Assembly: GCA_044433365.1 (NCBI GenBank)
Contig: JAWXTR010000001.1
Location: 44,860 to 108,859 of the forward strand
DNA from: Rikenellaceae bacterium
GTDB lineage: Bacteria; Bacteroidota; Bacteroidia; Bacteroidales; Rikenellaceae
Reading direction: 5' to 3'
Length of the DNA: 64,000 nt
Shown here: positions 3,273 through 59,782 of the stretch, one piece after another
Layout of the letters: each line of letters begins with the position of its first letter
Numbering within the stretch: the first letter of the stretch is position 1
Translations under genes and position numbers: made by a program
The notes under the pieces: model-generated
Told to the model about the DNA's origin: nothing
What the model saw: only the letters and a program-made list of their open reading frames with translations
Database searches by the model: none

Positions 3273-4512
3273 AAATGTTATAATATTGTTATCTCTCTTA
3301 CTTTTTGTGCCCCTTAGCGTAGTGGCACAAAACAGGGGTAGAGGTGTAGAAGTGTCGCATCAAAATATTTTAAGTGATAATAGCGATAGTGTAGATAGCG
3401 GAGTGGTAAAGCTATTGGTAGAGATGGGAATGGAGGACGTAAAGGCTATAACTAAAGGCGACAACACTTACATCTGCTATGAAGATAACATCTACAGAGG
3501 AAACTATCGAGGTATTGCTCAGACGGTAAAATCGCTACGAGAGATAGTTCCTACACAAACCATAAATTTACTGCTTCTTAGCGATGGTATAGCTCAAATA
3601 TCGATAGTTGTACCCGAAAATTTCGAGCAGTTAGAGGTGAGCTATTCTACAACCAAAATTGCTGAGCAGTTAAAAGGCAAAGAGAGCCATAATAGGCGAT
3701 TTGGTAAGACAGATATTGTGCTCTATCCCGAACTTTTCTTGGAAAATTCGTGGCTAGATAGATTGTATGGCTATGCTGTAAATTTATCGCCAGCTGTTGA
3801 GGTGAGCCTCTGGAAAGGTGCCGAATTTACAGGACAAGTAGTCCTACCTTTAAAGACCAATATGGTAGATGAGCACCAATATATCCGACCTGGGTTTATA
3901 ACCTTACGACAGTCGTTTCGACTCCCTAAAAACATTATGGGTGATATTACGGTGGGTAATTTCGACACTAATAGAGCAGGGTTAAATCTAAATTTATGCT
4001 ATTATAGCCTTAATAATCGACTTTCATTTGGAGTAAATGGAGCATTGACAGGTTCGTCTACTTTTAATAAAGGTGAGTGGACGCTAAGCCAATGGCGACG
4101 ATTTTCTGGCTCTTTTTGGGGTGGTTACTACATTCCACGATACAATATGGAGACTAAAATTAGCGTAGGGCGCATGATTTATGGTGATAGTGGAGTTAGA
4201 GTCGATATGGCACGCCATTTTGGAGAGGTTGCAGTAGGGCTTTATGCTCACTATTATGGAGGTGACCCAAATGGTGGATTCTCTTTTACTGTTCCTATGC
4301 CGAGCAAACGTCGATGGGCACGTAAACCAATAAGAGTGACAATTCCAGAGGAATTTTCGAGGGTGTATAGGGCGCAAAGTAGTAGAGATTTATTACTAGG
4401 ATATAGCTTTACAACCCGACCTGATGAGAGTTGGAATCTAAACTTTTATAATCCTATTTATATTCGTAATAGGGTTGTTGGTTTGTTAAGGGAACTTCTA
4501 AAAATCGAATAA
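3253..4512 (+). CDS. secreted/outer-membrane hypothetical protein (possibly YjbH-like), operonic with 2553..3272
   Basis: 419 aa. Signal peptide and beta-rich C-terminal half. 20-nt overlap with the upstream ORF. The last codons run into a GGGAAC element. Confidence 0.55.
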   Translation: MRLIYTKNVIILLSLLLFVPLSVVAQNRGRGVEVSHQNILSDNSDSVDSGVVKLLVEMGMEDVKAITKGDNTYICYEDNIYRGNYRGIAQTVKSLREIVPTQTINLLLLSDGIAQISIVVPENFEQLEVSYSTTKIAEQLKGKESHNRRFGKTDIVLYPELFLENSWLDRLYGYAVNLSPAVEVSLWKGAEFTGQVVLPLKTNMVDEHQYIRPGFITLRQSFRLPKNIMGDITVGNFDTNRAGLNLNLCYYSLNNRLSFGVNGALTGSSTFNKGEWTLSQWRRFSGSFWGGYYIPRYNMETKISVGRMIYGDSGVRVDMARHFGEVAVGLYAHYYGGDPNGGFSFTVPMPSKRRWARKPIRVTIPEEFSRVYRAQSSRDLLLGYSFTTRPDESWNLNFYNPIYIRNRVVGLLRELLKIE

Positions 4513-4545: not shown

Positions 4546-4575
4546 GTAAATTTTTTAACATTTATTCGCACAAAT

Positions 4576-4905
4576 AAGTAGGGTAAAATAATTATTGGTG
4601 TATTTTTAAAAGTGCTATTGGAGATGAGATTTTTTGCTATTGAATCGAAAATATAAGTAGTGTAAAATAATTATTGGTGTGTTTTTAATAGTGCTATTGG
4701 AAATGAGATTTTTTGCTATTGAATTGAAAATATAGTGGTTCTACATTGAAATTTAATAGTGAAAAATATCGCTCCAAAAGTGCTGTTAAAAATATGGCAA
4801 TAATTGTTTTACACTACTTAGTGGTTCTATATTGAGATTTAATAGTGAAAAATATCGCTCCAAGAGTGCTATTAAGAATATGGCAATAATTGTTTTACAC
4901 TACTT
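4576..4905 (+). mobile_element. nested TA-MITE165: full copy inserted in the apex TA of another copy
   Basis: Order is arm X, TA, complete element, TA, loop GTGGTTC, arm Y. An uninterrupted apex reads AAAATA-TA-GTGGTTC in other copies. Confidence 0.8.
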
Positions 4906-4963
4906 AATAGGGAAGCAGAGCAGAATTCCCAAATAATATTCAAGGAATTTTAAAAATAGGTGC

Positions 4964-5046: not shown

Positions 5047-6288
5047 ATGAAAAGAAAAAATCTATTTGTATCTCTAGCTCTAGCAGCAGTGAGTATGATG
5101 GCAATTGTGTCGAGCTGTACGAAGGATGAGGTAACGCTTGTTCCAGAGGATGTTCAGGATGTAATTGCAAAGGAGTATTACATTGAGGGAAATGTAACCA
5201 CAAAGGATACTCCAATTGAGGGTGTAGAGGTGAGTATAGCGACCACTTCAAACAGCACAACCACCGATAAGGATGGTAACTACAAATTAATTGTAGAGTC
5301 GGCAGCAACACAAACTATTTCGTTGTCAAAAGATGGCTACATCTCTTTAGAGACTAAAGCTGTTTTTGCTGATGATGCAAAAGTTGGTACAACAGTAATG
5401 TTGTCTTCGGTTTTGACCGCTGCAAACGAAAAAGTGTCAGTTGCTGAGGGTGAAACTGTTTCAGTAAATGATGGTAATAGTGATGATGAGGTTGTAAAAG
5501 CCATAATTGAAGTTCCTACAGGTGCATTTGCCGATTTAGAAGAGTCGAGTGATGGCGTTTTAGATATTGCTATTACCTACTTTACTCCTTCGTCAATTTC
5601 AGATGCCTTAGAAGCGGAGGGCGAAATTCAATCATCAACTTCGCTTTTTGCAATCAACTGTGAGCCTACAGGTGTTGTATTTAGCGAGCCTTTAGAGGTG
5701 ATAGTTCCTCTATCTACAACAGATGGTTATTTTGCCGATGTAAAACACCTTAAACAATCTGTTTCAGGTGGTGCATGGGAAGAGGTTGCTGATGCACAGG
5801 TGAGTGGTGATGGTTATAAATTCCAGTTAGATGGTTTTTCAAACCACACTATAGCACCAGAGACTACAACAACTGTAACAAGCTCTGTAATAACAATAGC
5901 AAGCGAAGTATTCGACAATATTAATAGCAGTACAGCTGTTACAGAGAGCTTCGCTTACAGTGCAAACCAGGGATGTGAGGTTGCATCAATAGCGTCAGAG
6001 GAGGGTTCGCTAAAGAGCCAGTTAGAAGAGATGTCGCTAGTAGAGTTAGGTGCAAACACTGCATCTGCTACCTCAAAAGAGCTTTCAACAACAATTAATG
6101 TTGCAGGTGATACAAAGGTGACAGCGACAGCTACACAAACTGTTAAAACATATAAATTTTCAGCGAAAGTTTATCAAAACGGTTCTTCTACAGCTCAAAC
6201 AATCTCAACCGAAATAACCTATTATGGTAGTGTTTCGATTGATATTGAAACTGAGCAGGGAGATATGCGTCCTGATCATAATATGTAG
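5047..6288 (+). CDS. surface lipoprotein with carboxypeptidase-regulatory-like (CarbopepD_reg) domain
   Basis: 413 aa. Lipobox ..AIVSSC, then GNVTTKDTPIEGVEVSI..TTDKDGNYKL typical of the CarboxypepD_reg fold. Ser/Thr-rich remainder. Confidence 0.7.
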   Translation: MKRKNLFVSLALAAVSMMAIVSSCTKDEVTLVPEDVQDVIAKEYYIEGNVTTKDTPIEGVEVSIATTSNSTTTDKDGNYKLIVESAATQTISLSKDGYISLETKAVFADDAKVGTTVMLSSVLTAANEKVSVAEGETVSVNDGNSDDEVVKAIIEVPTGAFADLEESSDGVLDIAITYFTPSSISDALEAEGEIQSSTSLFAINCEPTGVVFSEPLEVIVPLSTTDGYFADVKHLKQSVSGGAWEEVADAQVSGDGYKFQLDGFSNHTIAPETTTTVTSSVITIASEVFDNINSSTAVTESFAYSANQGCEVASIASEEGSLKSQLEEMSLVELGANTASATSKELSTTINVAGDTKVTATATQTVKTYKFSAKVYQNGSSTAQTISTEITYYGSVSIDIETEQGDMRPDHNM

Positions 6289-7773: not shown

Positions 7774-7836
7774 TATAATTCATAATGCATAATTCATAAT
7801 GCATAATTCATAATTTATAATTTATAATTTATAATT
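7774..7836 (-). repeat. heptanucleotide satellite array (reads CATAATK/TATAATT on plus)
   Basis: About 9 tandem 7-nt units filling the response-regulator/kinase spacer. Confidence 0.95.
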
Positions 7837-7838
7837 AA

Positions 7839-9185
7839 CTAAAGCTTATACTTCTTAATCTTATTATAAAGCGTCTGACGAGTAATAGCAAGCTCACTAG
7901 CCACAGCCGACATATTCCCCTCATTGCGAATTATTGCTGCTTCGATGGTTTGTCGCTCTATATTTTCTAGGGTGTCGATAGGTGTGCTGTTTTTTGAGGT
8001 TGCAGTTGCTAAATTTGTACTTTTTAGCAGTAAATCGCCCTGTTTTATAGTGTCGCTATCGCAAAGTATTACAGCTTTTTCAATAGTATGTTGCAATTCA
8101 CGTATATTTCCAGCCCAACTATGAGATATTAGAGCCTCAGTAGCATTTGGAGTAAATCCCTCAATCTGTTTCTGATATTTTGTCTTGTACATATCTAAAA
8201 AACGTTCGGCAAGAGGTAAAATATCCTCTTTTCGCTCTCTAAGAGCAGCTATTTTTGTCTGTATAGTGTTAATTCTATAGAATAAATCCTCACGAAACTT
8301 TCCATCTGCTACCATCTCTTCCAAATCTCTGTTTGTGGCGCAAATTAATCTTACATCTATATCTGTCGGGCTATTGCTACCCACTTTTACCACCTTTTTA
8401 CTCTGTAAAACAGTCAGTAATTTGGCTTGTAGATGGTATGGAAGATTGGCTATTTCATCTAAAAATATGGTGCCACCATTTGCAGCTTCAAACTTGCCAG
8501 CTCTATCGCATGTAGCCCCTGTAAACGACCCTTTTGTGTGTCCAAATAGTTCGCTTTCAAACAGAGTCTCGGCTATTGCTCCCATATCTACCGTAATAAG
8601 CGGCATTTTCGCTCTATTTGAATTTGAGTGTATCTCTTTTGCTAATACCTCCTTGCCTGTGCCATTTTCACCTGTTATAAGTATGTTTACATCGGTTACA
8701 GCCACTTTTTCGATGGTCTCTTTTAGTTGGCGCATTGCTTGGGAGTTACCCCAATACATTGGGCTTTTAGATTGCGACGACGTTGCCTTTTTCTCCCCTT
8801 TTTTAGATATTGCAGCCTTTGTAAGGGTGTCGATTAGTTTCGCATTATCCCAAGGTTTAACCACAAAATCGGCTGCACCACGTTTAATAGCCTCTACTGC
8901 CAATTCTATATCGGCATAGGCGGTAAAAACCACTACTGGCAGCGATTTGTCGATTTTTTTTATCTCCTCCAACCAATACAAGCCCTCATTGCCGCTATTT
9001 ATCGAGGCGGTGAAGTTCATATCCAAAAGTACCAAACTTACCTCCTCTTTGCGAAGCGTTGTGGCTATACTATTTGGTGTAGCAGTAACGATAATCTTCT
9101 CAAAGTGTGGCGACATCAAAAGTTTTACAGCCGAGAGTATCGACTTATTATCGTCTACAATTAAAAGTGTGCCTTTTGGTTTCAT
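7839..9185 (-). CDS. sigma-54-dependent response regulator (NtrC family)
   Basis: REC domain, AAA+ Walker A GENGTGKE, GSFTGA (GAFTGA-type sigma-54 contact loop), C-terminal HTH (ITRQTLYNKIKKY). Confidence 0.9.
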   Translation of the reverse strand: MKPKGTLLIVDDNKSILSAVKLLMSPHFEKIIVTATPNSIATTLRKEEVSLVLLDMNFTASINSGNEGLYWLEEIKKIDKSLPVVVFTAYADIELAVEAIKRGAADFVVKPWDNAKLIDTLTKAAISKKGEKKATSSQSKSPMYWGNSQAMRQLKETIEKVAVTDVNILITGENGTGKEVLAKEIHSNSNRAKMPLITVDMGAIAETLFESELFGHTKGSFTGATCDRAGKFEAANGGTIFLDEIANLPYHLQAKLLTVLQSKKVVKVGSNSPTDIDVRLICATNRDLEEMVADGKFREDLFYRINTIQTKIAALRERKEDILPLAERFLDMYKTKYQKQIEGFTPNATEALISHSWAGNIRELQHTIEKAVILCDSDTIKQGDLLLKSTNLATATSKNSTPIDTLENIERQTIEAAIIRNEGNMSAVASELAITRQTLYNKIKKYKL

Positions 9186-9214
9186 CTCTCTATTTTAGTT
9201 TTTTTGCATTAAAT

Positions 9215-9553
9215 TTAGCTTGCTACGCTTGCCATCCATAACTTAAATGGCTCTGCTTTGGGCGACGGTACTGATTGAATTAATCGAAAAAGTTGCTCTG
9301 TGTCAGCTACATCGGTTAAATATTTTTTACCATCACTAGAACGCATTTTGAGTTGTCCTATATTTTCGGACAACTCACTACCTTCAGTTTGTAACTTCTT
9401 TTTTAAATCGCTCCAATACTTACGTGGACGTGGACTATCAGTTAAAATCTCAATTACATCAATAATAGAAAAAAACCACTTCTCCTGCTCATCATCCCAA
9501 AGAGTACGCACTTTACGCTCCTCAAATATTTGAATTTTATTTTGTGTTGTCAT
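9215..9553 (-). CDS. Bro-N/DinD-like domain protein, apparently C-terminally truncated
   Basis: 112 aa. WFFSIIDVIEILTDS..PRKYW..LFRLIQSVPSPKAEPFKLWMA matches my memory of Bro-N domain proteins, which normally continue well past this point. Confidence 0.55.
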   Translation of the reverse strand: MTTQNKIQIFEERKVRTLWDDEQEKWFFSIIDVIEILTDSPRPRKYWSDLKKKLQTEGSELSENIGQLKMRSSDGKKYLTDVADTEQLFRLIQSVPSPKAEPFKLWMASVAS

Positions 9554-9601
9554 AGTAGTATAAAAAATTTAAACAAAGTTAAAAATTATATCCAAAAAAG
9601 A

Positions 9602-9634
9602 AAATTATGAATTATACATTATAAATTATGAATT
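9602..9634 (+). repeat. heptanucleotide satellite array (AATTATG orientation)
   Basis: AAATTATGAATTATACATTATAAATTATGAATT. Confidence 0.9.
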
Positions 9635-9637
9635 AAT

Positions 9638-9687
9638 AAAAAGTGTCTAATTTCTTTACACTACTGTCAAAAAATTAGACACTTTTA
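9638..9687. promoter_or_regulatory. perfect 15-bp inverted repeat, candidate enhancer (UAS) for the NtrC-type regulator
   Basis: AAAAAGTGTCTAATT ..19 nt.. AATTAGACACTTTTT, centred about 75 bp upstream of the -24/-12 element. No gene ends here, so a terminator role is unlikely. Confidence 0.35.
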
Positions 9688-9734
9688 AATTTTACAGATT
9701 TTTCAATACTTTGATAATTAATGTGTTGCAAGTT

Positions 9735-9750
9735 TGGCACGTCGTATGCA
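9735..9750 (+). promoter_or_regulatory. sigma-54 (-24/-12) promoter of the TolC-MacA-MacB-type operon
   Basis: TGGCACGTCGTATGCA versus consensus TGGCACG-N4-TTGCW. GG and GC spacing is correct, with one deviation. Lies 28 nt upstream of the ATG at 9778. Confidence 0.65.
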
Positions 9751-9777
9751 AAAGCTACTACAAAATAGGAATAAATT

Positions 9778-11109
9778 ATGAAAAACTTATTATTTTCAGC
9801 TATACTATTAGCAATTACTGCAAATGGAGTCAAGGCACAAACACCCATTACATTGCAGCAGTGTATGGAGTATACTCTGGAGCGAAATAATGCTATAAAA
9901 ATTCAAGAAATAGTGAATAATAGCACAAAACAGGATAAAACAGAGTCGATAGCATCGCTTTTCCCCTCACTAAGCGCATCATCGAGTGTTACAAACTCTT
10001 ATGGTCGTTCGATTGACCCAGAGACCAACACCTACACCACTAGCGGCAACCTTTCCAACTCTTACGGTTTGTATGCTTCTGTAACCGTATTTAGTGGACT
10101 AACAAACATTAATGCAGTGCGTGCTGCAAGAATGCGTGTAGAACAGGGAGGACTTCAATTACAGCAAAAAAAGGATGAAATGGCTATTTCGGCTATGAAG
10201 CTATTTTATGATGCGCTATACTACGAGGAGTCGGTAAAAATAGTTGTAGAGCAGAAAGAGGCATCTGAAAAGGTGTTGAAATTGACAAAAAAACAGTTAG
10301 AATTGGGTGTAAAAAGCGAAGCAGATGTAGCAGTAGCAGCAGCAGAGGTGGCAAACTACGACCTACTTCTTACAGAGCAAGAGAGTAGCTACAGGTTGGC
10401 TATATTAGATGTAAAAGAGGCGATGAACTTTCCATTAGATAGCCAAATAGAGCTTGTCGGTAGTGATACAAAGCTGCTAGAGACTCTAAAAACATTTAAA
10501 CCTTTCGACAGCAGCGAAACTCTGGAATATAACAGCGAAGTTCAATCGGCAAAAAGCTCATTAAAAGAGAGTCAGATAAATTTAAAAATAGCAAAAGGTG
10601 GTTATCTTCCCACTATCTCTTTTGGTGCTGGTTACAACACAAACTACTTTAAAATGTTTGATAGCGATGTAGCACAACGAATATTTTCTGACCAAATAAG
10701 GGATAACAACGGTTACTATTTTGGGGCATCTATCTCAATACCAATTTTTAAGGGGTTAAACAGTAGAATTAACGTTATAAAGAGTCGCAATAATGTAAAA
10801 ATAGCAGAGTTGCAGCTTTCGCAAACCGAGTTAAAGGTAGAAAAGGCGATAAAAAATGCACTGCTACAGAAAACAAGTTCCCTAAAAGAGCAGATAGGAG
10901 CAGAAAAGAAGATAGAAGCAAATAAATTAGCTACAAGAGCGATGACAAAAAAATATGAACAGGGAATAGCTAGCATAATCGACCTACAAAAAAGCAGCAA
11001 CGACCTACTACTAGCAAAAGCCGCCTATGCAAGAGCAAAGTATAACTACCAAATTCAATCAATAATGGTAGAGTATTATCGCAGTGGCGTTTTAGAGGTT
11101 AGAGGTTAG
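9778..11109 (+). CDS. TolC-family outer membrane efflux protein
   Basis: 443 aa. Signal peptide, two-repeat coiled/alpha-rich OEP architecture. First gene of the efflux operon. Confidence 0.8.
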   Translation: MKNLLFSAILLAITANGVKAQTPITLQQCMEYTLERNNAIKIQEIVNNSTKQDKTESIASLFPSLSASSSVTNSYGRSIDPETNTYTTSGNLSNSYGLYASVTVFSGLTNINAVRAARMRVEQGGLQLQQKKDEMAISAMKLFYDALYYEESVKIVVEQKEASEKVLKLTKKQLELGVKSEADVAVAAAEVANYDLLLTEQESSYRLAILDVKEAMNFPLDSQIELVGSDTKLLETLKTFKPFDSSETLEYNSEVQSAKSSLKESQINLKIAKGGYLPTISFGAGYNTNYFKMFDSDVAQRIFSDQIRDNNGYYFGASISIPIFKGLNSRINVIKSRNNVKIAELQLSQTELKVEKAIKNALLQKTSSLKEQIGAEKKIEANKLATRAMTKKYEQGIASIIDLQKSSNDLLLAKAAYARAKYNYQIQSIMVEYYRSGVLEVRG

Positions 11110-11134
11110 AGGGAAAAGAGGAGAGAGATTAGAG

Positions 11135-11172
11135 CATTACAATTATGCATTATGAATTATGCATTATGAATT
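11135..11172 (+). repeat. heptanucleotide satellite array (AATTATG orientation)
   Basis: CATTACAATTATGCATTATGAATTATGCATTATGAATT in the TolC/MacA spacer. Confidence 0.95.
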
Positions 11173-11179
11173 GAATATT

Positions 11180-12439
11180 ATGGATATAAAATTAGAACAA
11201 CCAAAAGGCATAAAAGCCATATTCAGAGCCAAAAATCTACCATATTTTTTAGGTGGAGCACTACTAATATTCGTAGCATGGCTACTACTACGTGATAATT
11301 CGGCTACGCTACGCATTAATGCCAAAACTATAGCAGTCGAAACAGTTGAAAATGGCGAATTTAACGACTATGTACGCATTACAGGGCAGGTTCAACCAAT
11401 AATGGCAGTGCAGCTTAGCCCATTAGAGAGCGGTATTGTAGAAGAAATTATGGTAGAGGAGGGTGCAAAGGTGAAAAAAGGTCAAATTTTAGCCATTTTA
11501 AGCAACAATAACCTAAACCTTTCAATCCTAGATAGCGAAGCGCAACTAGCAGAGAAACAGAACTTTCTACGCAACACCCAAATCACTATGGAGCAGGAGC
11601 GTTTAAGCCTAAATCAAGAGCGATTGCAGCTAGAATTAGATGTAAAACGCAAATATAGAGCCTATAAGCAGCAAGAGGAGTTATATAACGATAAACTCGT
11701 TGCAAAAGAGGATTGGCTGATAGCAAAAGAGGATTATGAGCTTGCAGTAAACCGTAGAGAGTTGATTTTAGAGCGACAAAAGCAAGATAGCCTTTACCGT
11801 ACAGTGCAGGTAGACCAAATGGAAGAGAGCCTTAATAATATGCGCCGAAATATGGAGCTTGTGCGCCAAAGAGTTGAAAATCTACATATTAAATCGCCTA
11901 TTGATGGTGAACTAGGTTTGTTAGATTTAGTATTAGGACAGTCGGTATCGTCGGGACAGAAAATAGGGCAAGTAAACGACCTTTCAAACTTTAAAATCGA
12001 AGCTCAAATTAATGAACACTACATAGATAGAGTAAATTCGGGTCTTACAGCAGCATTTGAACGCAGTGGTGAAACATTCGAGACGACTCTACGCAAAGTC
12101 TACCCAGAGGTGAGAGAGGGTCAGTTTCGTGCAGATTTTAAATTTACGGGTAATCGCCCTGAGAATATTCGTTCAGGTCAAACTTATTACTTAAATTTGC
12201 AACTTGGAGCACCAGCCCAGGCGGTTATCATTCCACGAGGTTCATTCTACCAAAGTACAGGTGGAAATTGGATTTTTGTTGTAAATGAAGCTGAGGGCAA
12301 AGCCTATAAACGCCATATTAAAATCGGTCGTCAAAATCCTCAATATTATGAGGTTATCGAGGGTCTTTCAGCTGGCGAAAAGGTGATTGTCTCTAGTTAT
12401 GAGCAGTATGGGGATAATGAGGTGCTGCTTTTTGATTAA
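11180..12439 (+). CDS. HlyD/MacA-family periplasmic adaptor
   Basis: N-terminal TM anchor, lipoyl-like and long coiled-coil segments, beta-barrel C-terminus. Start taken at MDIKLEQ, downstream of the array-encoded MHYELNI. Confidence 0.8.
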   Translation: MDIKLEQPKGIKAIFRAKNLPYFLGGALLIFVAWLLLRDNSATLRINAKTIAVETVENGEFNDYVRITGQVQPIMAVQLSPLESGIVEEIMVEEGAKVKKGQILAILSNNNLNLSILDSEAQLAEKQNFLRNTQITMEQERLSLNQERLQLELDVKRKYRAYKQQEELYNDKLVAKEDWLIAKEDYELAVNRRELILERQKQDSLYRTVQVDQMEESLNNMRRNMELVRQRVENLHIKSPIDGELGLLDLVLGQSVSSGQKIGQVNDLSNFKIEAQINEHYIDRVNSGLTAAFERSGETFETTLRKVYPEVREGQFRADFKFTGNRPENIRSGQTYYLNLQLGAPAQAVIIPRGSFYQSTGGNWIFVVNEAEGKAYKRHIKIGRQNPQYYEVIEGLSAGEKVIVSSYEQYGDNEVLLFD

Positions 12440-12469
12440 TGCGTAATTCGTAATTCGTAATGCGTAATT
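12438..12469 (-). repeat. heptanucleotide satellite array (CGTAATT variant, reverse orientation)
   Basis: AATGCGTAATTCGTAATTCGTAATGCGTAATT overlapping the MacA-like stop codon. 5' arm of a potential stem with 12530-12561. Confidence 0.95.
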
Positions 12470-12529
12470 GTGCAACGACAAAAAAACAAAGGGAACTTTT
12501 AAAATAAAATATAATATTATAAATCAATC

Positions 12530-12561
12530 AATTATGCATTATGAATTATGCATTATGAATT
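12530..12561 (+). repeat. heptanucleotide satellite array (AATTATG orientation)
   Basis: AATTATGCATTATGAATTATGCATTATGAATT. 3' arm of the stem with 12438-12469. Confidence 0.95.
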
Positions 12562-12574
12562 AAAATTTATTGCT

Positions 12575-13255
12575 ATGTTAAAAATTAAAAACATCAAAAA
12601 ACATTTCAAAACAGAATTAGTTGAAACTATAGCACTTGCAGGCGTAACATTTGAGGTAAAATCGGGTGAGTTTGTGGCTATTATGGGTCCGTCGGGTTGT
12701 GGAAAATCTACGCTGCTTAATATTTTAGGTCTTTTGGATAACCCAACCGAAGGTGGTTATGAGCTTTTAGGTCAAGAGGTTGGCTCACTTAAAGAGAAAG
12801 AGCGCACAAAATTCCGTAAAGGTAATATCGGCTTTATTTTTCAAAGTTTTAACCTTATCGACGAGCTTTCAGTATTTGAAAATGTCGAACTACCTCTTGT
12901 TTATATGGGTGTTAAGGCTAAAGAGCGCAAAGAGAGAGTATTGGCAATTCTTAAACGTATGGCTATCACCCATCGTGCCGAACATTTCCCTCAACAACTC
13001 TCTGGTGGTCAGCAACAGCGTGTAGCCATTGCTCGTGCACTTGTTAGCAACCCTAAATTAATCCTTGCCGATGAGCCTACAGGTAATCTTGATTCAAAAA
13101 ATGGTTCAGAGGTGATGCACCTACTTATGGATCTGCATCGTGAGGGTAGCACTATCATTATGGTTACTCACTCACAACACGATGCTGCTTATGCTGGGCG
13201 GACTATTAATCTTTTTGATGGGAAAATAGTAGAGGATGTGCAAAACTTCATGTAA
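12575..13255 (+). CDS. ABC transporter ATP-binding protein (MacB/LolD-type)
   Basis: Walker [10 protein letters not shown], signature LSGGQQQR, Walker B LILADEPT. Start at MLKIKNI, downstream of the array-encoded MHYELKFIA. Confidence 0.9.
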
Positions 13256-13328
13256 TTACGGAAGCCGTATAGCGCAGCCATTTTTGGCACATCCCTCCGC
13301 TTTTTAATCCTCACGCACCCCAAAAATC

Positions 13329-13360
13329 AATGCATAATTCATAATGCATAATTCATAATT
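13329..13360 (-). repeat. heptanucleotide satellite array, left arm bracketing the four-helix-bundle gene
   Basis: AATGCATAATTCATAATGCATAATTCATAATT. Its reverse complement matches 13732-13763 at 31 of 32 positions. Confidence 0.95.
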
Positions 13361-13373
13361 AAATAGTATTTGT

Positions 13374-13733
13374 ATGGGAAAAAGAGAAAATGTGATTGTT
13401 GACAAGAGTAAATTGTTTGCTATTCGGATAATTAGATTATATCAATATTTAAATAATGAAAAACAAGAGTATGTTTTATCAAAACAGTTATTGAGGTCGG
13501 GAACAAGTATTGGAGCTAATGTAAAAGAGGCTATACGTGGGCAATCTAAGGCTGATTTTGTGGCAAAAATGAATATTTCATTAAAAGAGGCAAGTGAAAC
13601 AGAATATTGGTTAGAATTACTACTTGAAACTGATTATATTAATAATCAGCAGTTTGATAGTATCTATTTAGATAATCAAGAGTTAATAAAACTCCTAATT
13701 TCAATAATCAAATCGAGTAAAAATAATTCCTAA
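13374..13733 (+). CDS. four-helix-bundle protein (23S rRNA intervening-sequence protein / Avd-fold family)
   Basis: 119 aa. ..LSKQLLRSGTSIGANVKEA....F..K..I.LKEASETEYWLELL.. is the family signature as I recall it (TIGR02436/PF05635 type). Confidence 0.8.
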   Translation: MGKRENVIVDKSKLFAIRIIRLYQYLNNEKQEYVLSKQLLRSGTSIGANVKEAIRGQSKADFVAKMNISLKEASETEYWLELLLETDYINNQQFDSIYLDNQELIKLLISIIKSSKNNS

Positions 13734-13763
13734 TTATGAATTATGCATTATGAATTATGAATT
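13732..13763 (+). repeat. heptanucleotide satellite array, right arm bracketing the four-helix-bundle gene
   Basis: AATTATGAATTATGCATTATGAATTATGAATT, starting inside the TAA stop of the 4HB gene. Confidence 0.95.
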
Positions 13764-13781
13764 AATTTAAAATGAATTAAA

Positions 13782-16196
13782 ATGAAAAATATATTACGAA
13801 ATAGAGATGGTGAGTTGCTAAAGGTGATACTACTAGGTGTTGCACTAGCAATGTCGCTTGTGATGTTTTCAAAGGTCTATTTTGAGAATAGCTATGAGGA
13901 TTTTGTGCCCAAGGCTGAGCGAATATATCGGGTGCATCCTCGATTTACTAGAGCAGGGCTTAGGATGATTCCCCAGTGGGCAACAACACCCGGTGGAATT
14001 GCACCAACAATAATAAAATTCTCTCCCCTTTTTGAGAGTGCTACACGATATAAGGTATATCGCAACGATGCAGCCTTTTATAAGGTGAGTGATAGTGATA
14101 GCGATGATGCACGTTCGGTAGTTTGTAGTGAGATGATACTTGCTGATAGCAATTTCCTTAGTTTTTTTCCACGTAATGTTATTGGTGCTACTATGGAAGA
14201 TATTGCCTCTACTTCACACGATGTGCTTTTATCTCGCTCTTTGGCTGAGAGTTTAAGCCATGACGGTGATGCAGAGTCGATTATTGGTAGTATGATACGA
14301 AGTAATGCTATCGTAATAGACGAAGATTTTACGGTAAAAGGAATTTTTGACGATTTTCCAAAAAATTCCTCACTTTGTGATATTGAGGTAATAGGTTCGG
14401 TGGAGCTTAACAATCTCTTTTATGATGAAGAGGATCATAACCGATTAATGGGTAACGAAGTATACCACAGTTATGTAAGATTGCAACCAAATGTAGAGGT
14501 TGCAGAGCTAGACAAGGCAATAGAGAATGCAATAGAGACAGATATTGTCAAAACATATAAAGATTTTATACCTGATGATATGTCGATTGGTTACTATTTA
14601 GAGGGTATTAAAACTATACATACCTCTGAGCAGTCGGTACGCTCAACGATTACACTACTGCTGATTTTAGGAATTTCAGTACTTGCAATTGCAATGTTAA
14701 ACTACGTTCTTTTTGCAGTAACTGCACTTGTTAAGAGGGCTAAAAATATTGCGACTCGCCGCTGTTATGGTGCGCCTACATGGGTGATATACAAAATGCT
14801 TATCAGTGATGCACTCTCTACGCTTTTGCTCTCACTAGCGTTGGCTGTATTTCTATTATTTGCATTAAAACCAAATATAGAAGCTATTACGGGTGTGCGT
14901 TATGTCGATTTATTTACTTTTGATATAGTTTGGATTGTGGTTGTGGTGTCGCTAATGGTGGTTATGGTGTGTGGTGTCGTTCCTGCTGCTATCTACTCAA
15001 AAATTCCTCTTTCGGCAGCGTTCCAACGCTTTAAAGAGCGAAATACAAAGTGGAAATATGCGCTTTTGGCTGTTCAATTCTCGGGTGCAATGTTGTTTAT
15101 CGCTCTACTTTCGATTATGACGCTACAATATCGCTATCTGTTATCCGTAGATATTGGCTATAAATATGATAATCTGCTATACGTGCAGTTTGAACGCTTT
15201 AATAGCGATGGTTACAAGGAGGTAAAAGATAATGTAATAAAAGTTGCAGGAGTTGAAAAAGTGGCACGTTGTTCGGATTTACCCTACACATTTCTTAGTT
15301 CTAATAGCACTTACGATAGTCAGGATGGTTTTTTATTCTCTTCTAACGAGATGAGTGCAGCCGATGAAGATTTACCATCAATCTTTGGACTCGAAATTGT
15401 TGAGGGGCGTGATTTTGATGCAGAGCATCCTACGGGGCAAGAGGCTTTGGTTAGTAAATCGTTTGTAGAGCAGATGTCTAAATATAAAGATTGGAGCGAT
15501 GGAGCAGTGGGTAAGTCGTTTCAAATGTCGTCACATAATCATAATGATGAGTATTCAACGGTTTGCGGAGTGTACGAAGATTTTTTAGTTGGAAATGCTG
15601 TTACTTTAGATGATATGCCATCTGTTATTTTCTATAGTGAGACTCAAAGCCATAACTATAATGTTAAGATGAAATATCTTGTCATAAAAGTTCGAGAAGA
15701 TACTCAAGAGATTAGAACAGCTATTCAAAATGCTATTAAAGAGATTGTGCCATCGCAAAATACTGAGATTCGTAACTACTCAGCAGAGTTTGAGCAGTCG
15801 TATTCTGATAGTAAAAACTTTAGAAACATGGTGCTTTACGCAGGTTTGATAGTGTTGATAATCACTTTAATCGGTTTGGTAGGCTATACACGTGATGAAA
15901 TATCACGTCGCAGGTCGGAAATTGCTATTCGTAAGATTCATGGAGCTACAACTTCCGAAATTATTCAGATTTTTATGCGTGATGTGGTTTGGCTTTTGCT
16001 TTTTGGACTTTTAGCAGGTGGTGCAGCTTCGCTATATGCTGCTAACTCTCTACTTGAGATGTTCGCCTATAAAATTACGCTTAGCCCATGGATATTCCTA
16101 TTGAGTGCAGTAGTAGTAACAGCAGTAATAGCCGCAGTGGTAATATCTACAACTCATAGAGCTGCTGATGCTAACCCTGTGGATAACCTTAATTAA
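13782..16196 (+). CDS. ABC transporter permease, duplicated FtsX/MacB-type
   Basis: 804 aa. Two modules, each a large extracytoplasmic domain plus a 4-TM FtsX-like bundle. Follows the ATPase in the same operon. Confidence 0.8.
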   Translation: MKNILRNRDGELLKVILLGVALAMSLVMFSKVYFENSYEDFVPKAERIYRVHPRFTRAGLRMIPQWATTPGGIAPTIIKFSPLFESATRYKVYRNDAAFYKVSDSDSDDARSVVCSEMILADSNFLSFFPRNVIGATMEDIASTSHDVLLSRSLAESLSHDGDAESIIGSMIRSNAIVIDEDFTVKGIFDDFPKNSSLCDIEVIGSVELNNLFYDEEDHNRLMGNEVYHSYVRLQPNVEVAELDKAIENAIETDIVKTYKDFIPDDMSIGYYLEGIKTIHTSEQSVRSTITLLLILGISVLAIAMLNYVLFAVTALVKRAKNIATRRCYGAPTWVIYKMLISDALSTLLLSLALAVFLLFALKPNIEAITGVRYVDLFTFDIVWIVVVVSLMVVMVCGVVPAAIYSKIPLSAAFQRFKERNTKWKYALLAVQFSGAMLFIALLSIMTLQYRYLLSVDIGYKYDNLLYVQFERFNSDGYKEVKDNVIKVAGVEKVARCSDLPYTFLSSNSTYDSQDGFLFSSNEMSAADEDLPSIFGLEIVEGRDFDAEHPTGQEALVSKSFVEQMSKYKDWSDGAVGKSFQMSSHNHNDEYSTVCGVYEDFLVGNAVTLDDMPSVIFYSETQSHNYNVKMKYLVIKVREDTQEIRTAIQNAIKEIVPSQNTEIRNYSAEFEQSYSDSKNFRNMVLYAGLIVLIITLIGLVGYTRDEISRRRSEIAIRKIHGATTSEIIQIFMRDVVWLLLFGLLAGGAASLYAANSLLEMFAYKITLSPWIFLLSAVVVTAVIAAVVISTTHRAADANPVDNLN

Positions 16197-16255
16197 TTCA
16201 TAATTTGTAATGCATAATTCATAATTGAAAATTCTTAAATTATGAATTATAAATT
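16195..16255. repeat. opposed heptamer arrays forming a hairpin just after the permease stop
   Basis: AATTCATAATTTGTAATGCATAATTCATAATT, 10-nt loop, AAATTATGAATTATAAATT. Confidence 0.9.
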
Positions 16256-16317
16256 AATTTACATGAGAACAATAGCAAACTTTTTTGTTTGATAGTAGTT
16301 TTGAGAATGACTCTAAG

Positions 16318-16386
16318 AAAAAAGGTTTGAAAAACCTTCGCACTGCTCATAAAAAGCGGAAGAAGGATTTTCAAACCTTTATTGGT
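16318..16386. mobile_element. short derivative of the AATAAAGGTTTGAAA-terminated element (family M190)
   Basis: AAAGGTTTGAAAAACC...GGAAGAAGGATTTTCAAACCTTTATTGG shares both termini and the GCGGAAGAAGG segment with 57111-57300. Confidence 0.6.
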
Positions 16387-16400
16387 GTTTAAAATATAAA

Positions 16401-16444
16401 GGGAACTTCTAAAAATCGAATAAAACTAATTATTAGAACTCCCC
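16401..16444 (+). mobile_element. GGGAAC-type mini palindromic element (short form)
   Basis: 44-bp copy flanked by TAAA on both sides. Confidence 0.8.
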
Positions 16445-16464
16445 TAAAACTTTTCTTTAGTATT

Positions 16465-16628
16465 AAGTAGTGTAAAACAATTATTGCCATATTCTTAATA
16501 GCACTCTTGGAGCGATATTTTTCACTATTAAATCTCAATATAGAACCACTATATTGAGATTCAATAGCAAAAAATCTCATCTCCAATAGCACTATTAAAA
16601 ATACACCAATAATTATTTTACCCTACTT
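16465..16628 (-). mobile_element. TA-MITE165, full copy abutting the frdB stop codon
   Basis: TA on both flanks. The right TA plus the terminal element base form the frdB TAA stop on the minus strand. Confidence 0.85.
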
Positions 16629-17370
16629 AGTCTTTTAATTTTGCACAAAGGAACTCACGGTTTAGGCGAGCGATATGAGAGATTGAGATACCTTTTGGAC
16701 ACTCAGCCTCACAAGCTTGTGTATTAGTACAACCACCAAAACCTAAATCATCCATTTTAGCAACCATCGCTTTAGCACGACGAGAAGCCTCAACTTTACC
16801 TTGTGGTAGAAGAGCTAGAGAAGATACACGAGCAGCTACGAAAAGCATAGCTGAACCGTTTTTACAAGTAGCAACGCAAGCACCACAACCGATACAAGCG
16901 GCAGCATCCATACTATCCTCAGCATCTGGCTTAGGAATTGGAATTGCGTTTGCATCAGGAACACCACCTGTATTTACTGAGATAAAACCACCTGCATGAA
17001 GAATTTGCTCGTAAGCAGTTCTATCAACAGCAAGGTCTTTAAGTACAGGGAATGCTTTTGAACGCCAAGGCTCAATTGTAATCTCTTTTTGACCTTTAAA
17101 CTTACGCATGTGAAGCTGACAAGTAGTGATATCATCATCTGGACCGTGTGCACGACCATCAATAAATAGAGAACACATACCGCAGATACCCTCACGACAG
17201 TCGTGGTCGAATACTACTGGCTCTTGACCTGCATGGATAAGGTCGTTGTTTAAAATATCTAACATCTCTAGGAATGAGCTATCCTCAGAAATATTTTTCA
17301 CATCATAGGTTTCAAATTTACCTGCTGATTGTGCGTTGGCTTGACGCCATATCTTTAATTTTAAATCCAT
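16627..17370 (-). CDS. frdB: fumarate reductase/succinate dehydrogenase iron-sulfur subunit
   Basis: 2Fe-2[10 protein letters not shown], 4Fe-4[12 protein letters not shown], third cluster C..CEAECP. Confidence 0.92.
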
Positions 17371-21635: not shown

Positions 21636-21644
21636 GGGTTTATT

Positions 21645-21690
21645 AATTTATAATTCATAATTCATAATTCATAATGCATAATTCATAATT
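21645..21690 (-). repeat. heptanucleotide satellite array directly upstream of aroA
   Basis: AATTTATAATTCATAATTCATAATTCATAATGCATAATTCATAATT. Confidence 0.95.
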
Positions 21691-21715
21691 GTTGGTATTA
21701 ATCATTACTGCTGTT

Positions 21716-21957
21716 AAGTAGTGTAAAACAATTATTGCCATATTTTTAACAGCACTAAGTAGTGTAAAACAATTATTGCCATATTCTTAATAGCACTCTT
21801 GGAGCGATATTTTTTACTATTAAATCTCAATATAGAACCACTATATTTTCGATTCAATAGCAAAAAATCTCATCTCCAATAGCACTATTAAAAATACACC
21901 AATAATTATTTTACCCTACTTATTAAAAACAGACCAATAATTATTTCACACTACTTA
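21716..21957 (-). mobile_element. nested TA-MITE165: full copy inside the central TA of a ~74-bp miniature derivative
   Basis: Left terminus (39 bp), TA, complete element, TA, right terminus (33 bp), TA. Confidence 0.8.
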
Positions 21958-22113: not shown

Positions 22114-22761
22114 ATGATAGATTTTCTTTTTACTCCTGAGTCGATAGCTCGCAATGGCTTTCAGAAAAATATTGAAGTGGTTTTGGCAGCAGTTAAAAGT
22201 GATTGTTTCTACACTATTTCACTTCCTCCTCGTTATTTAGAAGAGGGTGCAATTGCTATTGGTGACACCCCTCTAGTTAATATATGTTCTATGTCTCAAT
22301 ACGCTTCGCTTACATATCCAGAAGTGGCGATATTAGAGGTTGCAATGGCTATAGAAAATGGTGCCGACGAGATTGAAATCCCTATCGATATGATTGCCAT
22401 CAAAAATGGCGATATAGATTTGGCTCTAGGCGAGATAGATGTGCTTGTCAAAGAGATTGACGGTGCAGCTCAACCTACAGTTTTTATGGAAAGTGGTGAG
22501 TTTAATAGCTTCGAGCAATTTATTTCTATGGTAAAAAGGTTAGAACTACTTGGTGTATACCAAATTACAATGAATAGCGACCCAAAAGATTTCTATAACA
22601 TTAAATATCTGGATGAAACAATAGCATTTATTGAAGAGAATGAAATGGAGATAACTTTAAAGATTAATGCCAATATAAATATTAATAATCTCGAGAGTGA
22701 GGTCGACAAATTATTCGAAAGATATGGCGACTCTTCGCTCACTGTTCGAATGACTCTTTAA
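22114..22761 (+). CDS. DeoC-like (class I aldolase fold) protein, probably non-catalytic
   Basis: 215 aa. AIENGADEIEIPIDMIAIKNGD and VFMESGEF align by eye to DeoC AIAYGADEVDVV.. and VIIETGEL, but the Schiff-base Lys position (FIKTSTG) reads QITMNSD. Confidence 0.5.
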   Translation: MIDFLFTPESIARNGFQKNIEVVLAAVKSDCFYTISLPPRYLEEGAIAIGDTPLVNICSMSQYASLTYPEVAILEVAMAIENGADEIEIPIDMIAIKNGDIDLALGEIDVLVKEIDGAAQPTVFMESGEFNSFEQFISMVKRLELLGVYQITMNSDPKDFYNIKYLDETIAFIEENEMEITLKINANININNLESEVDKLFERYGDSSLTVRMTL

Positions 22762-22798
22762 TTCGTAATTCATAATTTATAATTTATAATTCATAATT
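22760..22798 (-). repeat. heptanucleotide satellite array
   Basis: AATTCGTAATTCATAATTTATAATTTATAATTCATAATT overlapping the stop codon of 22114..22761. Confidence 0.95.
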
Positions 22799-24145: not shown

Positions 24146-24577
24146 GGTATAGGCGTTTAGACCACCCACTATACATTCCACTACCAAGCTGTTTTGGCTC
24201 ATTTTGAACGATCCTAACTATAAGGTTATCGAATATAATCCACATATTTGTCCGTATATTACACCTGTAATTGTACTCGTCGATATATCCTTGCCTATGT
24301 CGAACATCGTTCCTGTGGTTGGACTCTCATTGTATTTACACTTCATACACCTGCATGAATGGGATTTTGATCCACGATAATATTGCATGTGACCACATTT
24401 ACGACAGACATAACCATCTGCCAACTTGACATCCGCCAAGTATTTACAGCAATCGTCGTCGCTCTGAAAATAGCGATTGAATTTAATCAAGTTCACTTCT
24501 CTAAATTTATTTTCTTTACCCATTCTGCAAAGGTAGGTATTATTATTTTATTGGATGGTCTAAATGCCTACGCCTAT
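24146..24577 (-). mobile_element. IS1595-family remnant (inverted ends around a truncated transposase)
   Basis: GGTATAGGCGTTTAGACC (left) versus GGTCTAAATGCCTACGCCTATA (right), an imperfect inverted repeat. Encloses only the Zn-ribbon N-terminus of the transposase. Confidence 0.6.
24218..24523 (-). pseudogene. IS1595-family transposase, N-terminal zinc-ribbon fragment only
   Basis: CCKYLADVKLADGYVCRKCGH..YYRGSKSHSCRCMKCKYNESPTTGTMF matches the transposase zinc-ribbon domain. The sequence diverges and stops after about 100 aa, and no DDE domain follows. Confidence 0.7.
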
Positions 24578-24790: not shown

Positions 24791-24955
24791 AAGTAGTTTG
24801 AGATAATTATTGGTGTGTTTTTGATAGTGCTATTGGAGATGAGATTTTTTGCTATTTAATTGAAAATATCGTGGTTCTACATTGAGATTTAATAGTGAAA
24901 AACATCGCTCCAAGAGTGCTATTAAAAATATGGCAATAATTGTTTTTCACTACTT
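24791..24955 (+). mobile_element. TA-MITE165, diverged full copy, itself inside a ~340-bp segment bounded by GATTAGGYGCATAGAGC inverted repeats (24645-24982)
   Basis: TA flanks. Outer inverted repeat is GGATTAGGCGCATAGAGCGCAC / GTGCTCTATGCACCTAATTC. Confidence 0.75.
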
Positions 24956-25280
24956 ACAATGTGCTCTATGCACCTAATTCTAAAAAAAAAATTGCATAAT
25001 ATATTGTAGTACAAGAACTTGTAGGTATAATAATAAGAATAGTTATTATTTTGCTTGCAAAATAGATATTACGCATATTATATTTGCAGAATCATAAAAT
25101 AACCAACTTGCAAGTGATTTTTATTTGGTGATGTCAAAATTTAATATTAACTTTAAAACGTAAAATTGTGTTATACGACAAAGATTTATATGAAAATTAT
25201 CCAAGTTATTTAATGGATAAGAAAAAAGAAATAAAAAGGAGAATGAAATAGGATATGGTGCTCCGTCACCAATTCCTACT

Positions 25281-29734: not shown

Positions 29735-29792
29735 TTCATAATTCGTAATTCGTAATGCATAATTCATAATTCGTAATGCATAATTCATAATT
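29731..29792 (-). repeat. heptanucleotide satellite array filling the S41/PBP1A spacer
   Basis: About 9 units (CATAATT/CGTAATT/CGTAATG), containing the TAA stop of the S41 gene. Confidence 0.95.
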
Positions 29793-35363: not shown

Positions 35364-35386
35364 TTTCTTTTCTTTTCTTAGATTTT

Positions 35387-35551
35387 AAGTAGGGTAAAAT
35401 AATTATTGGTGTATTTTTAAAAGTGCTATTGGAGATGAGATTTTTTGTTATTGAATCGAAAATATAGTGGTTCTATATTGAGATTTAATAGTGAAAAATA
35501 TCGCTCCAAGAGTGCTATTAAGAATATGGCAATAATTGTTTTACACTACTT
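35387..35551 (+). mobile_element. TA-MITE165, full copy
   Basis: TA flanks. Lies between the galM start and the sulfatase stop. Confidence 0.85.
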
Positions 35552-35564
35552 AGAGGTTTGCCTA

Positions 35565-40386: not shown

Positions 40387-40454
40387 AATTTTTCTATTTT
40401 TAGTTGTTAACAACTGTTAATAACTGTTGATAACTTTGTTGATAACTATTGTTT

Positions 40455-40486
40455 AATTCATAATTTATAATTCATAATTTATAATT
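40455..40486 (-). repeat. heptanucleotide satellite array
   Basis: AATTCATAATTTATAATTCATAATTTATAATT. Confidence 0.95.
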
Positions 40487-40760: not shown

Positions 40761-40821
40761 ACAATTCATAATTTATAATTTATAATTTATAATTCATAAT
40801 TTATAATTCATAATTTATAAT
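40761..40821 (-). repeat. heptanucleotide satellite array overlapping the 3' end of the GSCFA gene
   Basis: About 9 units. Encodes the terminal ..NYKL* of 40808..41758. Confidence 0.95.
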
Positions 40822-43111: not shown

Positions 43112-43139
43112 ATTGTGAATTGTGAATTATAAATGAATT
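43097..43139 (+). repeat. heptanucleotide satellite array (AATTGTG/AATTATA variants) overlapping the pepT stop
   Basis: AATTATAAATTGTAAATTGTGAATTGTGAATTATAAATGAATT. Confidence 0.9.
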
Positions 43140-46035: not shown

Positions 46036-46086
46036 TATAATATATCTAAATTGGCATCTCTTGCCAAAATTTTTACAAAGTTAACT

Positions 46087-46252
46087 TAAGTAGTGTAAAA
46101 CAATTATTGCCATATTCTTAATAGCACTCTTGGAGCGATATTTTTCACTATTAAATCTCAATATAGAACCACTATATTTTCGATTCAATAGCAAAAAATC
46201 TCATCTCCAATAGCACTATTAAAAATACACCAATAATTATTTTACCCTACTT
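46087..46252 (-). mobile_element. TA-MITE165, full copy, 3' of the MATE gene
   Basis: TA flanks. This is the copy used for the arm-by-arm pairing analysis. Confidence 0.85.
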
Positions 46253-46311
46253 ATTTTTGTATATTTAAAAATTTTAATTAAAAAATTCTTTTAATTTTTA
46301 CAACTTCACCC

Positions 46312-50719: not shown

Positions 50720-50751
50720 AATTATGAATTATGAATTACGAATTATGAATT
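50720..50751 (+). repeat. heptanucleotide satellite array spanning the mazG/LbH junction
   Basis: AATTATGAATTATGAATTACGAATTATGAATT. Encodes the last codons and stop of mazG. Confidence 0.95.
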
Positions 50752-51533: not shown

Positions 51534-51574
51534 AATAATTATGCATTATGAATTATGCATTATGAATTGTAATT
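51534..51574 (+). repeat. heptanucleotide satellite array in the rluA-like/mazG spacer
   Basis: AATAATTATGCATTATGAATTATGCATTATGAATTGTAATT. Confidence 0.95.
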
Positions 51575-59779: not shown

Positions 59780-59782
59780 AAA

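Follow-up and report, generated by a model that had tools for sequence, protein, structure and literature searches.

A four-helix-bundle gene between inverted heptamer arrays in a Rikenellaceae efflux operon, a probable and apparently undescribed relative of 23S rRNA intervening sequences

The intervening sequence (IVS) in the 23S rRNA of Coxiella is an element of 428 nt whose terminal inverted repeats make up a 28-bp stem that is cut by RNase III, and whose loop holds an open reading frame (ORF) for S23p, a protein of the PF05635 family (Warrier et al. 2016, PMC4990558). Two to three tandem GACAGAT heptamers, variable in number between strains, lie directly 5' of this ORF and the 5' cleavage falls at the first repeat; the ORF itself was reported to be decaying and is probably untranslated (PMC4990558). 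Genes of this family have also been described within cas operons, for example between cmr3 and cmr2 (Zhang & Ye 2013, PMC3936711). Here we analyze 64,000 nt of a Rikenellaceae bacterium genome (assembly GCA_044433365.1, contig JAWXTR010000001.1, positions 44,860 to 108,859; hereafter the window, with positions counted from its first nucleotide), in which a gene for a four-helix-bundle (4HB) protein of the same family lies between two inverted heptamer arrays, inside a MacB-type efflux operon. We favor the view, with a probability of roughly 0.55, that 13329-13764 is a compact element of the 23S rRNA IVS type set in an mRNA operon, consisting of a promoter-less 4HB gene with inverted arrays of about five heptamers at its ends, whose arms would pair and be cut by RNase III in the transcript. 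It is apparently an undescribed, operon-borne relative of the rRNA elements.

The 23S rRNA IVSs of Leptospira, Coxiella burnetii, Xanthomonas and others carry the same protein family as the window element, and in both cases a sense ORF occupies the loop of a terminal-inverted-repeat stem of about 28-32 bp in an element of about 430 nt. The tandem heptamers 5' of the Coxiella ORF likewise have a counterpart in the 4.6 units at 13329-13360. The IVS-like architecture suggested by an initial annotation of this DNA therefore has a published precedent in stem, heptamers and RNase III cleavage alike. The two also differ. The rRNA elements are found in helix 25 or 45 of the rRNA, whereas the window element lies between protein-coding genes of an operon; Rfam gave no known RNA family in or near the cassette (9000-17000) and no rRNA match there, and an rRNA context was found in none of 20 related loci. 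Excision by RNase III has been demonstrated for the rRNA elements, whereas for the window element we infer it. Unlike the Coxiella ORF, the window ORF is under strong purifying selection, as indicated by a proportion of synonymous differences (pS) of 0.71-0.9, which is saturated, against a proportion of nonsynonymous differences (pN) of 0.10-0.19. No paper linking PF05635 proteins to heptamer arrays was found in the full-text literature, subscription journals and database family comments aside.

The ORF (13374-13733, 119 aa) matches PF05635 (23S_rRNA_IVP; E = 5.7e-29; score 100.9 bits, cutoff 33.8), its sole Pfam match, as well as TIGR02436, 'four helix bundle protein' (E = 6.6e-32, 110 bits against a cutoff of 24). 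Residues 4-118 align with the Bacteroides thetaiotaomicron structure PDB 2RLD (E = 1e-42), an entry of five chains, and NCBI holds an identical protein from a metagenome-assembled genome (MAG) as 'MAG: four helix bundle protein [Rikenellaceae bacterium]'. A four-helix-bundle fold is predicted for the protein from its sequence. The conserved family motif is GxxRxxxSxxxNxxE (Zhang & Ye 2013, PMC3936711), and its RxxxSxxxNxxE part is present here as LLRSGTSIGANVKEA, with Q in place of the leading G. The initial annotation had placed the ORF in this family, and between the ATPase and permease genes of one MacB-type transporter; the profile matches of the ORF and of its neighbors confirm both points. 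Upstream of the ATPase, the operon contains genes for a HlyD-type adaptor and an OEP protein. A tblastn search found no second 4HB copy or pseudogene in the window, the PADLOC defence models matched the protein with 0 families, and no 4HB relatives were found on viral contigs, so that phage carriage was not seen.

The left array (13329-13360) reads AATGCATAATTCATAATGCATAATTCATAATT and the right array (13732-13763) reads AATTATGAATTATGCATTATGAATTATGAATT. As the initial annotation had stated, the two are complementary in inverted orientation at 31 of 32 positions and could extrude a loop of about 370 nt (371 nt by our measurement); a repeat search extends the pairing to 51 nt at 86% (13324-13374 with 13718-13768). 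When the RNA of 13300-13790 is folded, the long-range stem is closed in both the minimum-free-energy and the centroid structure (-105 kcal/mol, z = -4.45). Scans for sigma-70-type promoters and for terminators remained at chance level, with a consensus that excludes Bacteroidota promoters. A leader of 13 nt separates the left arm from the ATG and leaves no space for a promoter of the element's own; together with the chance-level scans this makes read-through transcription the likely source of 4HB expression.

The motif ATTATGMATTATGMATTA occurs 82 times in the window against 0.1 expected. An inverted pair around one gene is therefore not statistically remarkable there, and the significance of the pair that flanks the 4HB gene comes from a survey across genomes. 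A metagenome scan with the 4HB protein as query returned more than 340 relatives, from which we analyzed the best 80 loci (66-80% identity, host G+C 34-64%) plus two Rikenellaceae loci, L003 and L005. Arrays were called by a heuristic period-7 detector, in a strict version for counts of two arms. The first 100-nt flank bin was array-positive upstream in 75/79 loci (95%) and downstream in 65/78 (83%), while more distant 100-nt bins held roughly 1-3 arrays per 60 loci, making arrays about 30-fold rarer there. In a set of 88 close loci with at least 120 nt on each side, some of them fetched later, the strict detector recognized both arms in 58, one arm in 29 and none in 1. At least one array was present within about 100 nt of the gene in 87/88 close and 16/16 distant homologues, that is in 103/104 homologues from five phyla. 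The arms have median lengths of 33 and 35.5 nt (about five units), the median gap from arm to ATG is 14 nt, and the right arm begins at the 4HB stop codon (median -2). At almost all loci, the downstream arm is built of the units that the upstream arm shows when read as its reverse complement, and the ungapped complement score of the arms has a median of 19 versus 9 for a direct-orientation control. The combination of inverted heptamer stem and 4HB ORF singled out by the initial annotation is thus a real entity: arms and ORF form a conserved unit found in many unrelated operons of several phyla. Slippage could generate simple repeats that fill A+T-rich spacers, with the 4HB gene merely standing between two of them, as the roughly 20 arrays per 64 kb and the array-bracketing of each gene in the efflux operon might suggest. 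We consider such a coincidence very improbable, as it is already contradicted by arrays that, at 82 independent loci, are concentrated within 100 nt of the 4HB gene on either side, by the array-flanking of 16/16 distant homologues with other units, and by arms that accompany the ORF into a Firmicute operon.

In nearly all loci the 4HB gene is co-oriented with both neighbors, from which it is separated by about 40-100 nt. Since one common context is present in redundant copies among the metagenome loci, these were dereplicated by neighbor families; among 31 dereplicated contexts with co-directional neighbors, the gene is in sense orientation in 29 and antisense in 2. The close loci fall into about 25-40 distinct neighbor contexts, the largest group being type III mod/res, with hsdS/hsdR, Fic/hsdM, asd/dapA and parE/parC among the others; over all loci, fliP/fliQ, drmD/MmeI, csx2/cas1 and RND adaptor/permease are found as well. 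An integron cassette shares with the window element a promoter-less sense orientation only: it has a single 3' attC site and stands in an array beside an integrase, whereas the window element has repeats on both sides and no adjacent integrase, and lies in an ordinary host operon. Cassettes between subunit genes of defence operons are very frequent (L032, L010, L044, L088, L093, L092/L107, L094, L103 and L097), the contexts being type III mod/res, type I hsdS/hsdR, Fic/hsdM, DISARM drmD/MmeI, DUF1156/Swt1-HEPN, csx2/cas1 and cas2/cas1. PF05635/TIGR02436 is among the commonest uncharacterized annotations in Bacteroidota and Cyanobacteria, recurring unexplained in restriction-modification, CRISPR-Cas and other operons. 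Inverted heptamer arms mark such genes as discrete insertions, which aids both annotation and the reading of 'new' defence-system components.

Homologues of 73-81% identity occur in MAGs labelled Clostridia, an assignment across phyla that is based on the MAG labels and on the genes present (a flagellar operon). One such gene lies between fliP and fliQ in a flagellar operon of Oscillospiraceae, with CATAATT/AATTATG arms as in the window, and the same operon has a gene-less inverted pair between fliR and flhB. A second Clostridia-labelled homologue is situated between hsdS and hsdR, and a tblastn search against plasmids returned 31 records, mostly cyanobacterial. The 16 of these distant homologues that we examined, 45-57% identical, came from Nostoc (six loci), Euhalothece, Planktothrix, Pseudanabaena, Dolichospermum and Gloeocapsa among the Cyanobacteria and from Chlorohelix (two loci), Treponema saccharophilum, Monoglobus, Bernardetia and Chondrinema; the phylum-level labels of this sample are Cyanobacteria, Chloroflexota, Spirochaetota, Bacillota and Cytophagia. 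All 16 have flanking period-7 arrays, and the gene-flanking arms are inverted in nearly all of them; in Treponema they are direct, with an inverted partner further upstream. These distant cassettes also occupy junctions of co-oriented genes, often in defence operons (hsdS/hsdR, drmD/MmeI, DUF1156/Swt1-HEPN, csx2/cas1), and in one case the junction is that of RND adaptor and RND permease genes. Their units are lineage-specific (ACTGGTC, GTCGGAG/CCGACTT, AATCCCC/AATCGTA, GGATTTT, CTCTCCG, TTAGTGA). The units of the close family are all (A/C)ATTNNG, across hosts of 35-64% G+C, and the distant proteins go with unrelated heptamers; protein and repeat therefore change together, which joint inheritance of arms and ORF would predict. 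The co-change would also fit specific recognition of the arms by the 4HB protein. Two loci from Nostoc flagelliforme and Dolichospermum plasmids (L104 and L106) carry CGTAATT/AATTACG units, as do many Bacteroidales cassettes; their proteins are only about 50-55% identical to the window protein.

A search with the permease recovered six Rikenellaceae MAG loci, and the ATPase-permease junction differs among them. L003 has the layout of the window, with a left arm, a sense 4HB gene and a right arm overlapping the stop codon. In L005, two complete hairpins whose heptamers are richer in G+C (AATGGTG/AATTGTG), and whose 27-nt loops are similar, enclose a 4HB gene on the opposite strand. The inverted arrays of L006 enclose a loop of 58 nt that holds no gene, and L002 and L004 have neither arrays nor gene. 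The presence or absence of the cassette at the orthologous junction, which the initial annotation had proposed to compare among related genomes, does vary. The ATPases at these junctions are 91-93% identical, while the 4HB proteins share 76% (window and L003), 53% (window and L005) or 47% (L003 and L005) identity. Divergent 4HB proteins next to far more similar ATPases mean that different 4HB lineages occupied one junction, a pattern that indicates independent insertion or cassette replacement and not simple vertical descent. We rejected recent transfer as the cause of high protein identity, since saturation at synonymous sites extends even to the pair of the window and L003. The 73 nt preceding the left arm (13256-13328) are G+C-rich, as the initial annotation had observed (49% versus 37% in the window), and unique in the window. 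Its reading of them as foreign cargo does not hold, since they align to one half, the left, of a native palindromic hairpin in the L002 spacer, the homology ending at the apex; in that relative, the G+C-rich hairpin of about 130 nt (5848-5985; -49.5 kcal/mol, z -5.5) fills the ATPase-permease spacer. The window retains the left half only, up to the apex where the cassette starts, which hints that the cassette may have entered at, or been replaced from, the tip of the native spacer hairpin.

Armed elements that lack the gene are found at other junctions as well. We compared the fliP-fliQ junction among relatives of the Oscillospiraceae locus (FliP 80-84% identical). In L101 it is empty, with 35 nt that include a small GC hairpin, and L100 carries one array. 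In L099 an inverted pair encloses a 52-nt loop, and these arms and loop recur at the fliQ-fliR junction; the two copies of the gene-less element are at 3461-3589 and 3874-3997, and the conserved loop contains two small GC hairpins. In L005 and L092 the 4HB gene has similar repeated loops at its flanks. This recurrence shows that the armed hairpins behave as repeated units themselves. The unit is thus gained, lost or replaced at given junctions, and gene-less armed hairpins are repeated derivatives of it. The arrays are not specific to the cassette: about 20 of them are spread over 17 of the 52 intergenic gaps of the window, mostly with no 4HB gene, and L006 has arrays with no gene. The initial annotation had taken gene-less arrays at equal frequency to speak against its proposal, and arrays without the gene in fact outnumber arrays with it.

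By the mechanism that we favor, the 4HB gene would be transcribed by read-through from the efflux operon, and within that transcript the two arms would form a duplex of about 30 bp that, by analogy with the rRNA-borne Coxiella element, RNase III would cut. Such a cut would release the 4HB mRNA and part the ATPase message from that of the permease. At the DNA level, homologous arrays may serve as sites for cassette exchange, inversion or deletion, and the 4HB protein probably recognizes its own heptamer arms. RNA-level excision at the window element is plausible on the strength of the analogy. The type of element known from rRNA would then be extended to mRNAs, with a ~30-bp intercistronic duplex as an expected RNase III site that would uncouple the expression of subunits such as ATPase and permease, Mod and Res or HsdS and HsdR.

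Several results weigh against this interpretation. The strict detector found both arms in just 58/88 close loci, and the arrays of the window mostly stand without a 4HB gene. The stem is very A+U-rich, and the bracketing of every efflux-operon gene by arrays makes alternative arm pairings possible. Recognizable target-site duplications were absent from the arm boundaries in the window, L003 and L095, close relatives yielded no precise empty site, and no DNA-mobility enzyme was identified for the element. Complementarity is 88.7% over the 1906 columns of 60 unique arm pairs, and the mismatches are mainly G:A or U:C, derived from the A/C unit variants; a test for G:U strand bias gave 42 G:U versus 39 A:C (p = 0.82), with no sense-strand excess and thus no sign in the sequences of selection for pairing in RNA as such. 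The complementarity could therefore be a DNA-level property, or a by-product of two inverted arrays of the same family.

The main rival explanation, which is not exclusive of the favored one, is a DNA-level element, whose arrays would be terminal inverted repeats recognized in DNA as duplex, hairpin or cruciform and whose pairing in RNA would be incidental. The 4HB protein would then be an end-binding or mobility factor, and the gene-less hairpins non-autonomous copies moved in trans, similar to MITEs (miniature inverted-repeat transposable elements) or REPINs. We regard this as a serious though rather doubtful alternative. It would account for arm mismatches that have no G:U strand bias, for a unit core, (A/C)ATT..G, that is kept across hosts of 35-64% G+C despite saturated synonymous sites, for units that shift with the protein lineage, and for a 4HB gene that is the sole gene between the arms. 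Gene-less units with conserved loops, twice in one operon in L099 and in similar form in L005 and L092, also speak for it. The same layout, a gene set between inverted copies of a repeat that is dispersed through its genome, is known from RAYT genes and repetitive extragenic palindromic (REP) sequences. The window family has further likenesses to REP/REPIN-RAYT systems, in that it involves a short dispersed intergenic repeat, inverted hairpin pairs in operons and an associated gene bracketed by the repeat, with gene-less copies that far outnumber gene-bearing ones. However, RAYTs are Y1 transposases of the IS200/IS605 type whereas the protein here is a four-helix bundle, and REPs are fixed palindromes whereas the window repeats are tandem heptamer arrays of variable length. 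To our knowledge, a helical bundle of 120 aa has no nuclease or recombinase activity. Target-site duplications were not seen, and a symmetric DNA mechanism does not predict the strong bias for sense orientation unless selection for expression is added. In addition, the rRNA-borne members are demonstrably processed as RNA (PMC4990558).

The 4HB protein is also homologous or structurally similar to Avd, the small helical-bundle protein of diversity-generating retroelements (DGRs), and an Avd-type accessory gene has to be considered since PF05635 includes or resembles DGR Avd proteins (PMC10053308). This origin, raised by the initial annotation, is the least credible of those considered here. The neighbors are transporter genes, and neither a reverse transcriptase nor any other sign of a DGR, such as a template or variable repeat, is found near the 4HB gene in the window. 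No window ORF has a reverse-transcriptase-like YxDD motif in a plausible context, and apart from the arm pairing there are no long repeats in the window that involve the 4HB ORF, hence no pair of template and variable repeats. The neighbors whose annotation was examined at related loci include no reverse transcriptase gene; of the 82 metagenome loci, most were covered by clustering alone. Avd itself is a pentamer that binds nucleic acid.

Heptamer repeats were first reported in 1990. The arrays known as STRR in cyanobacteria, TAACTGA in Beggiatoaceae, cyanobacteria and Bacteroidetes, and GGGAATC in Xanthomonas are, like those of the window, composed of intergenic 7-nt units beside start or stop codons, vary in length between relatives and frequently form convergent inverted pairs. 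Two papers describe such arrays as abundant and intergenic and call their function unknown (MacGregor 2015, PMC4679880; Rehm et al. 2015, PMC4692102), and 70-75 convergent inverted pairs of GGGAATC arrays are given for Xanthomonas (PMC4692102). Term searches in the two papers gave no mention of S23, 23S or helix-bundle proteins (PMC4679880, PMC4692102); in the window family, arrays systematically flank PF05635 genes, a link that these searches did not meet there. For the heptamer simple-sequence arrays that many bacterial genomes contain without explanation, the 4HB protein is a concrete candidate. We put forward tentatively that PF05635 proteins are trans-acting partners of bacterial heptamer arrays, each lineage recognizing its own 7-nt unit and maintaining or propagating armed elements. 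The roughly five units of each arm would correspond to the five chains of the 2RLD entry, and the 4HB cassette would be the autonomous member of the system, with gene-less arrays and hairpins as its non-autonomous derivatives. If so, these derivatives would include the cyanobacterial STRRs, the Xanthomonas GGGAATC and Beggiatoaceae TAACTGA arrays and the spacer arrays of the window, where they occupy a third of the spacers. Minimal mobile elements of this kind, whose protein is no transposase and whose movement may be mediated by RNA, for which Avd and its reverse transcriptase are a precedent, would make up a new class, and they would account for heptamer repeats whose function was still called unknown in the 2015 papers (PMC4679880, PMC4692102). 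Close homologues are present in the genetically tractable Bacteroides thetaiotaomicron, one of them with a solved structure (2RLD), which makes these predictions directly testable.

The window holds about 20 arrays of 4-9 units each (AATTATG, CATTATG, AATTATA, AATTACG, AATTGTG), a saturation that is unusually high compared with most related loci. Among the 17 gaps that carry them, 13 lie between co-directional genes; the arrays are found in both orientations and frequently overlap or abut a stop or start codon, and adjacent pairs all read 5'-CATAATT...AATTATG-3'. This distribution, together with the strong purifying selection on the 4HB protein, could also point to a host regulatory system, in which the arrays are intercistronic cis-elements for mRNA stability, translation or termination and the 4HB protein is a trans-acting binder, autoregulated inside one of them. 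Binding of a post-transcriptional regulator to intergenic TAACTGA arrays has in fact been proposed (MacGregor 2015, PMC4679880). We find this account unlikely in view of the variable presence at orthologous junctions of close relatives, the transfer of the unit across phyla, the diversity of operon contexts, which have no common function, and the differences in array length and orientation between relatives. The features of the window are listed in Table 1.

Table 1. Genes, heptamer arrays and dispersed repeats of the window
Feature	Position	Strand	Basis or remark
Heptamer array (AATTATG/CATTATG), OEP-HlyD junction, same operon	11141..11172	+	
Array, CGTAATT on + strand; left arm of gene-less pair	12437..12469	-	overlaps HlyD stop
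Array, right arm of gene-less pair (60-nt loop)	12530..12562	+	just 5' of ATPase start
ABC transporter ATPase (ABC_tran)	12548..13255	+	true start probably 12575 (MLKIKN..., as orthologues)
Native-spacer relic, left half of ~130-nt GC-rich hairpin, outside cassette	13256..13328	+	L002 alignment
Left arm, 4.6 heptamer units (CATAATT/CATAATG on + strand)	13329..13360	-	
13-nt leader, left arm to ATG	13361..13373	+	
119-aa 4HB protein (PF05635/TIGR02436)	13374..13733	+	profile matches, RxxxSxxxNxxE motif
Right arm, 4.7 heptamer units (AATTATG/CATTATG)	13732..13764	+	starts within 4HB stop codon
MacB-type permease (MacB_PCD + FtsX)	13782..16196	+	profile matches
Gene-less inverted pair	16194-16238 (minus-type), 16236-16256 (plus-type)		overlaps permease stop
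Gene-less inverted pair	59682-59744/59748-59775 (site 59685-59780)		
Further arrays, same family	7775-7836, 9602-9640, 21644-21690, 22759-22798, 29731-29792, 40454-40486		
Further arrays, same family	40763-40822, 43096-43134, 50720-50751, 51537-51568, 55045-55102, 63093-63126		
~167-nt palindromic repeat	2364-2532, 4575-4909 (two overlapping copies), 16464-16629, 21714-21957, 24803-24956, 35386-35552, 46086-46253		

Two ORF calls that read 'MHYEL...', at 11159 and 12548, begin at ATG codons within heptamer arrays. Orthologues of the ATPase start with MLKIKN (12575), so the arrays give false N-terminal extensions in automatic gene calls. A motif, AAAGGGAACTT(T/C)TAAAA, is shared by 12488-12506, in the loop of the gene-less hairpin between the HlyD and ATPase genes, and 16397-16416, 3' of the permease. 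The window has a second dispersed repeat, a MITE-like palindromic element of about 167 nt with at least seven copies at 92-98% identity. Sub-threshold Rfam 'miRNA' matches at 16497-16596 fall on a copy of this repeat and were rejected as spurious. An ORF with a Bro-N domain and an IS1595-type zinc-ribbon fragment, at 9215-9553 and 24218-24523, are probably remnants of other mobile elements.

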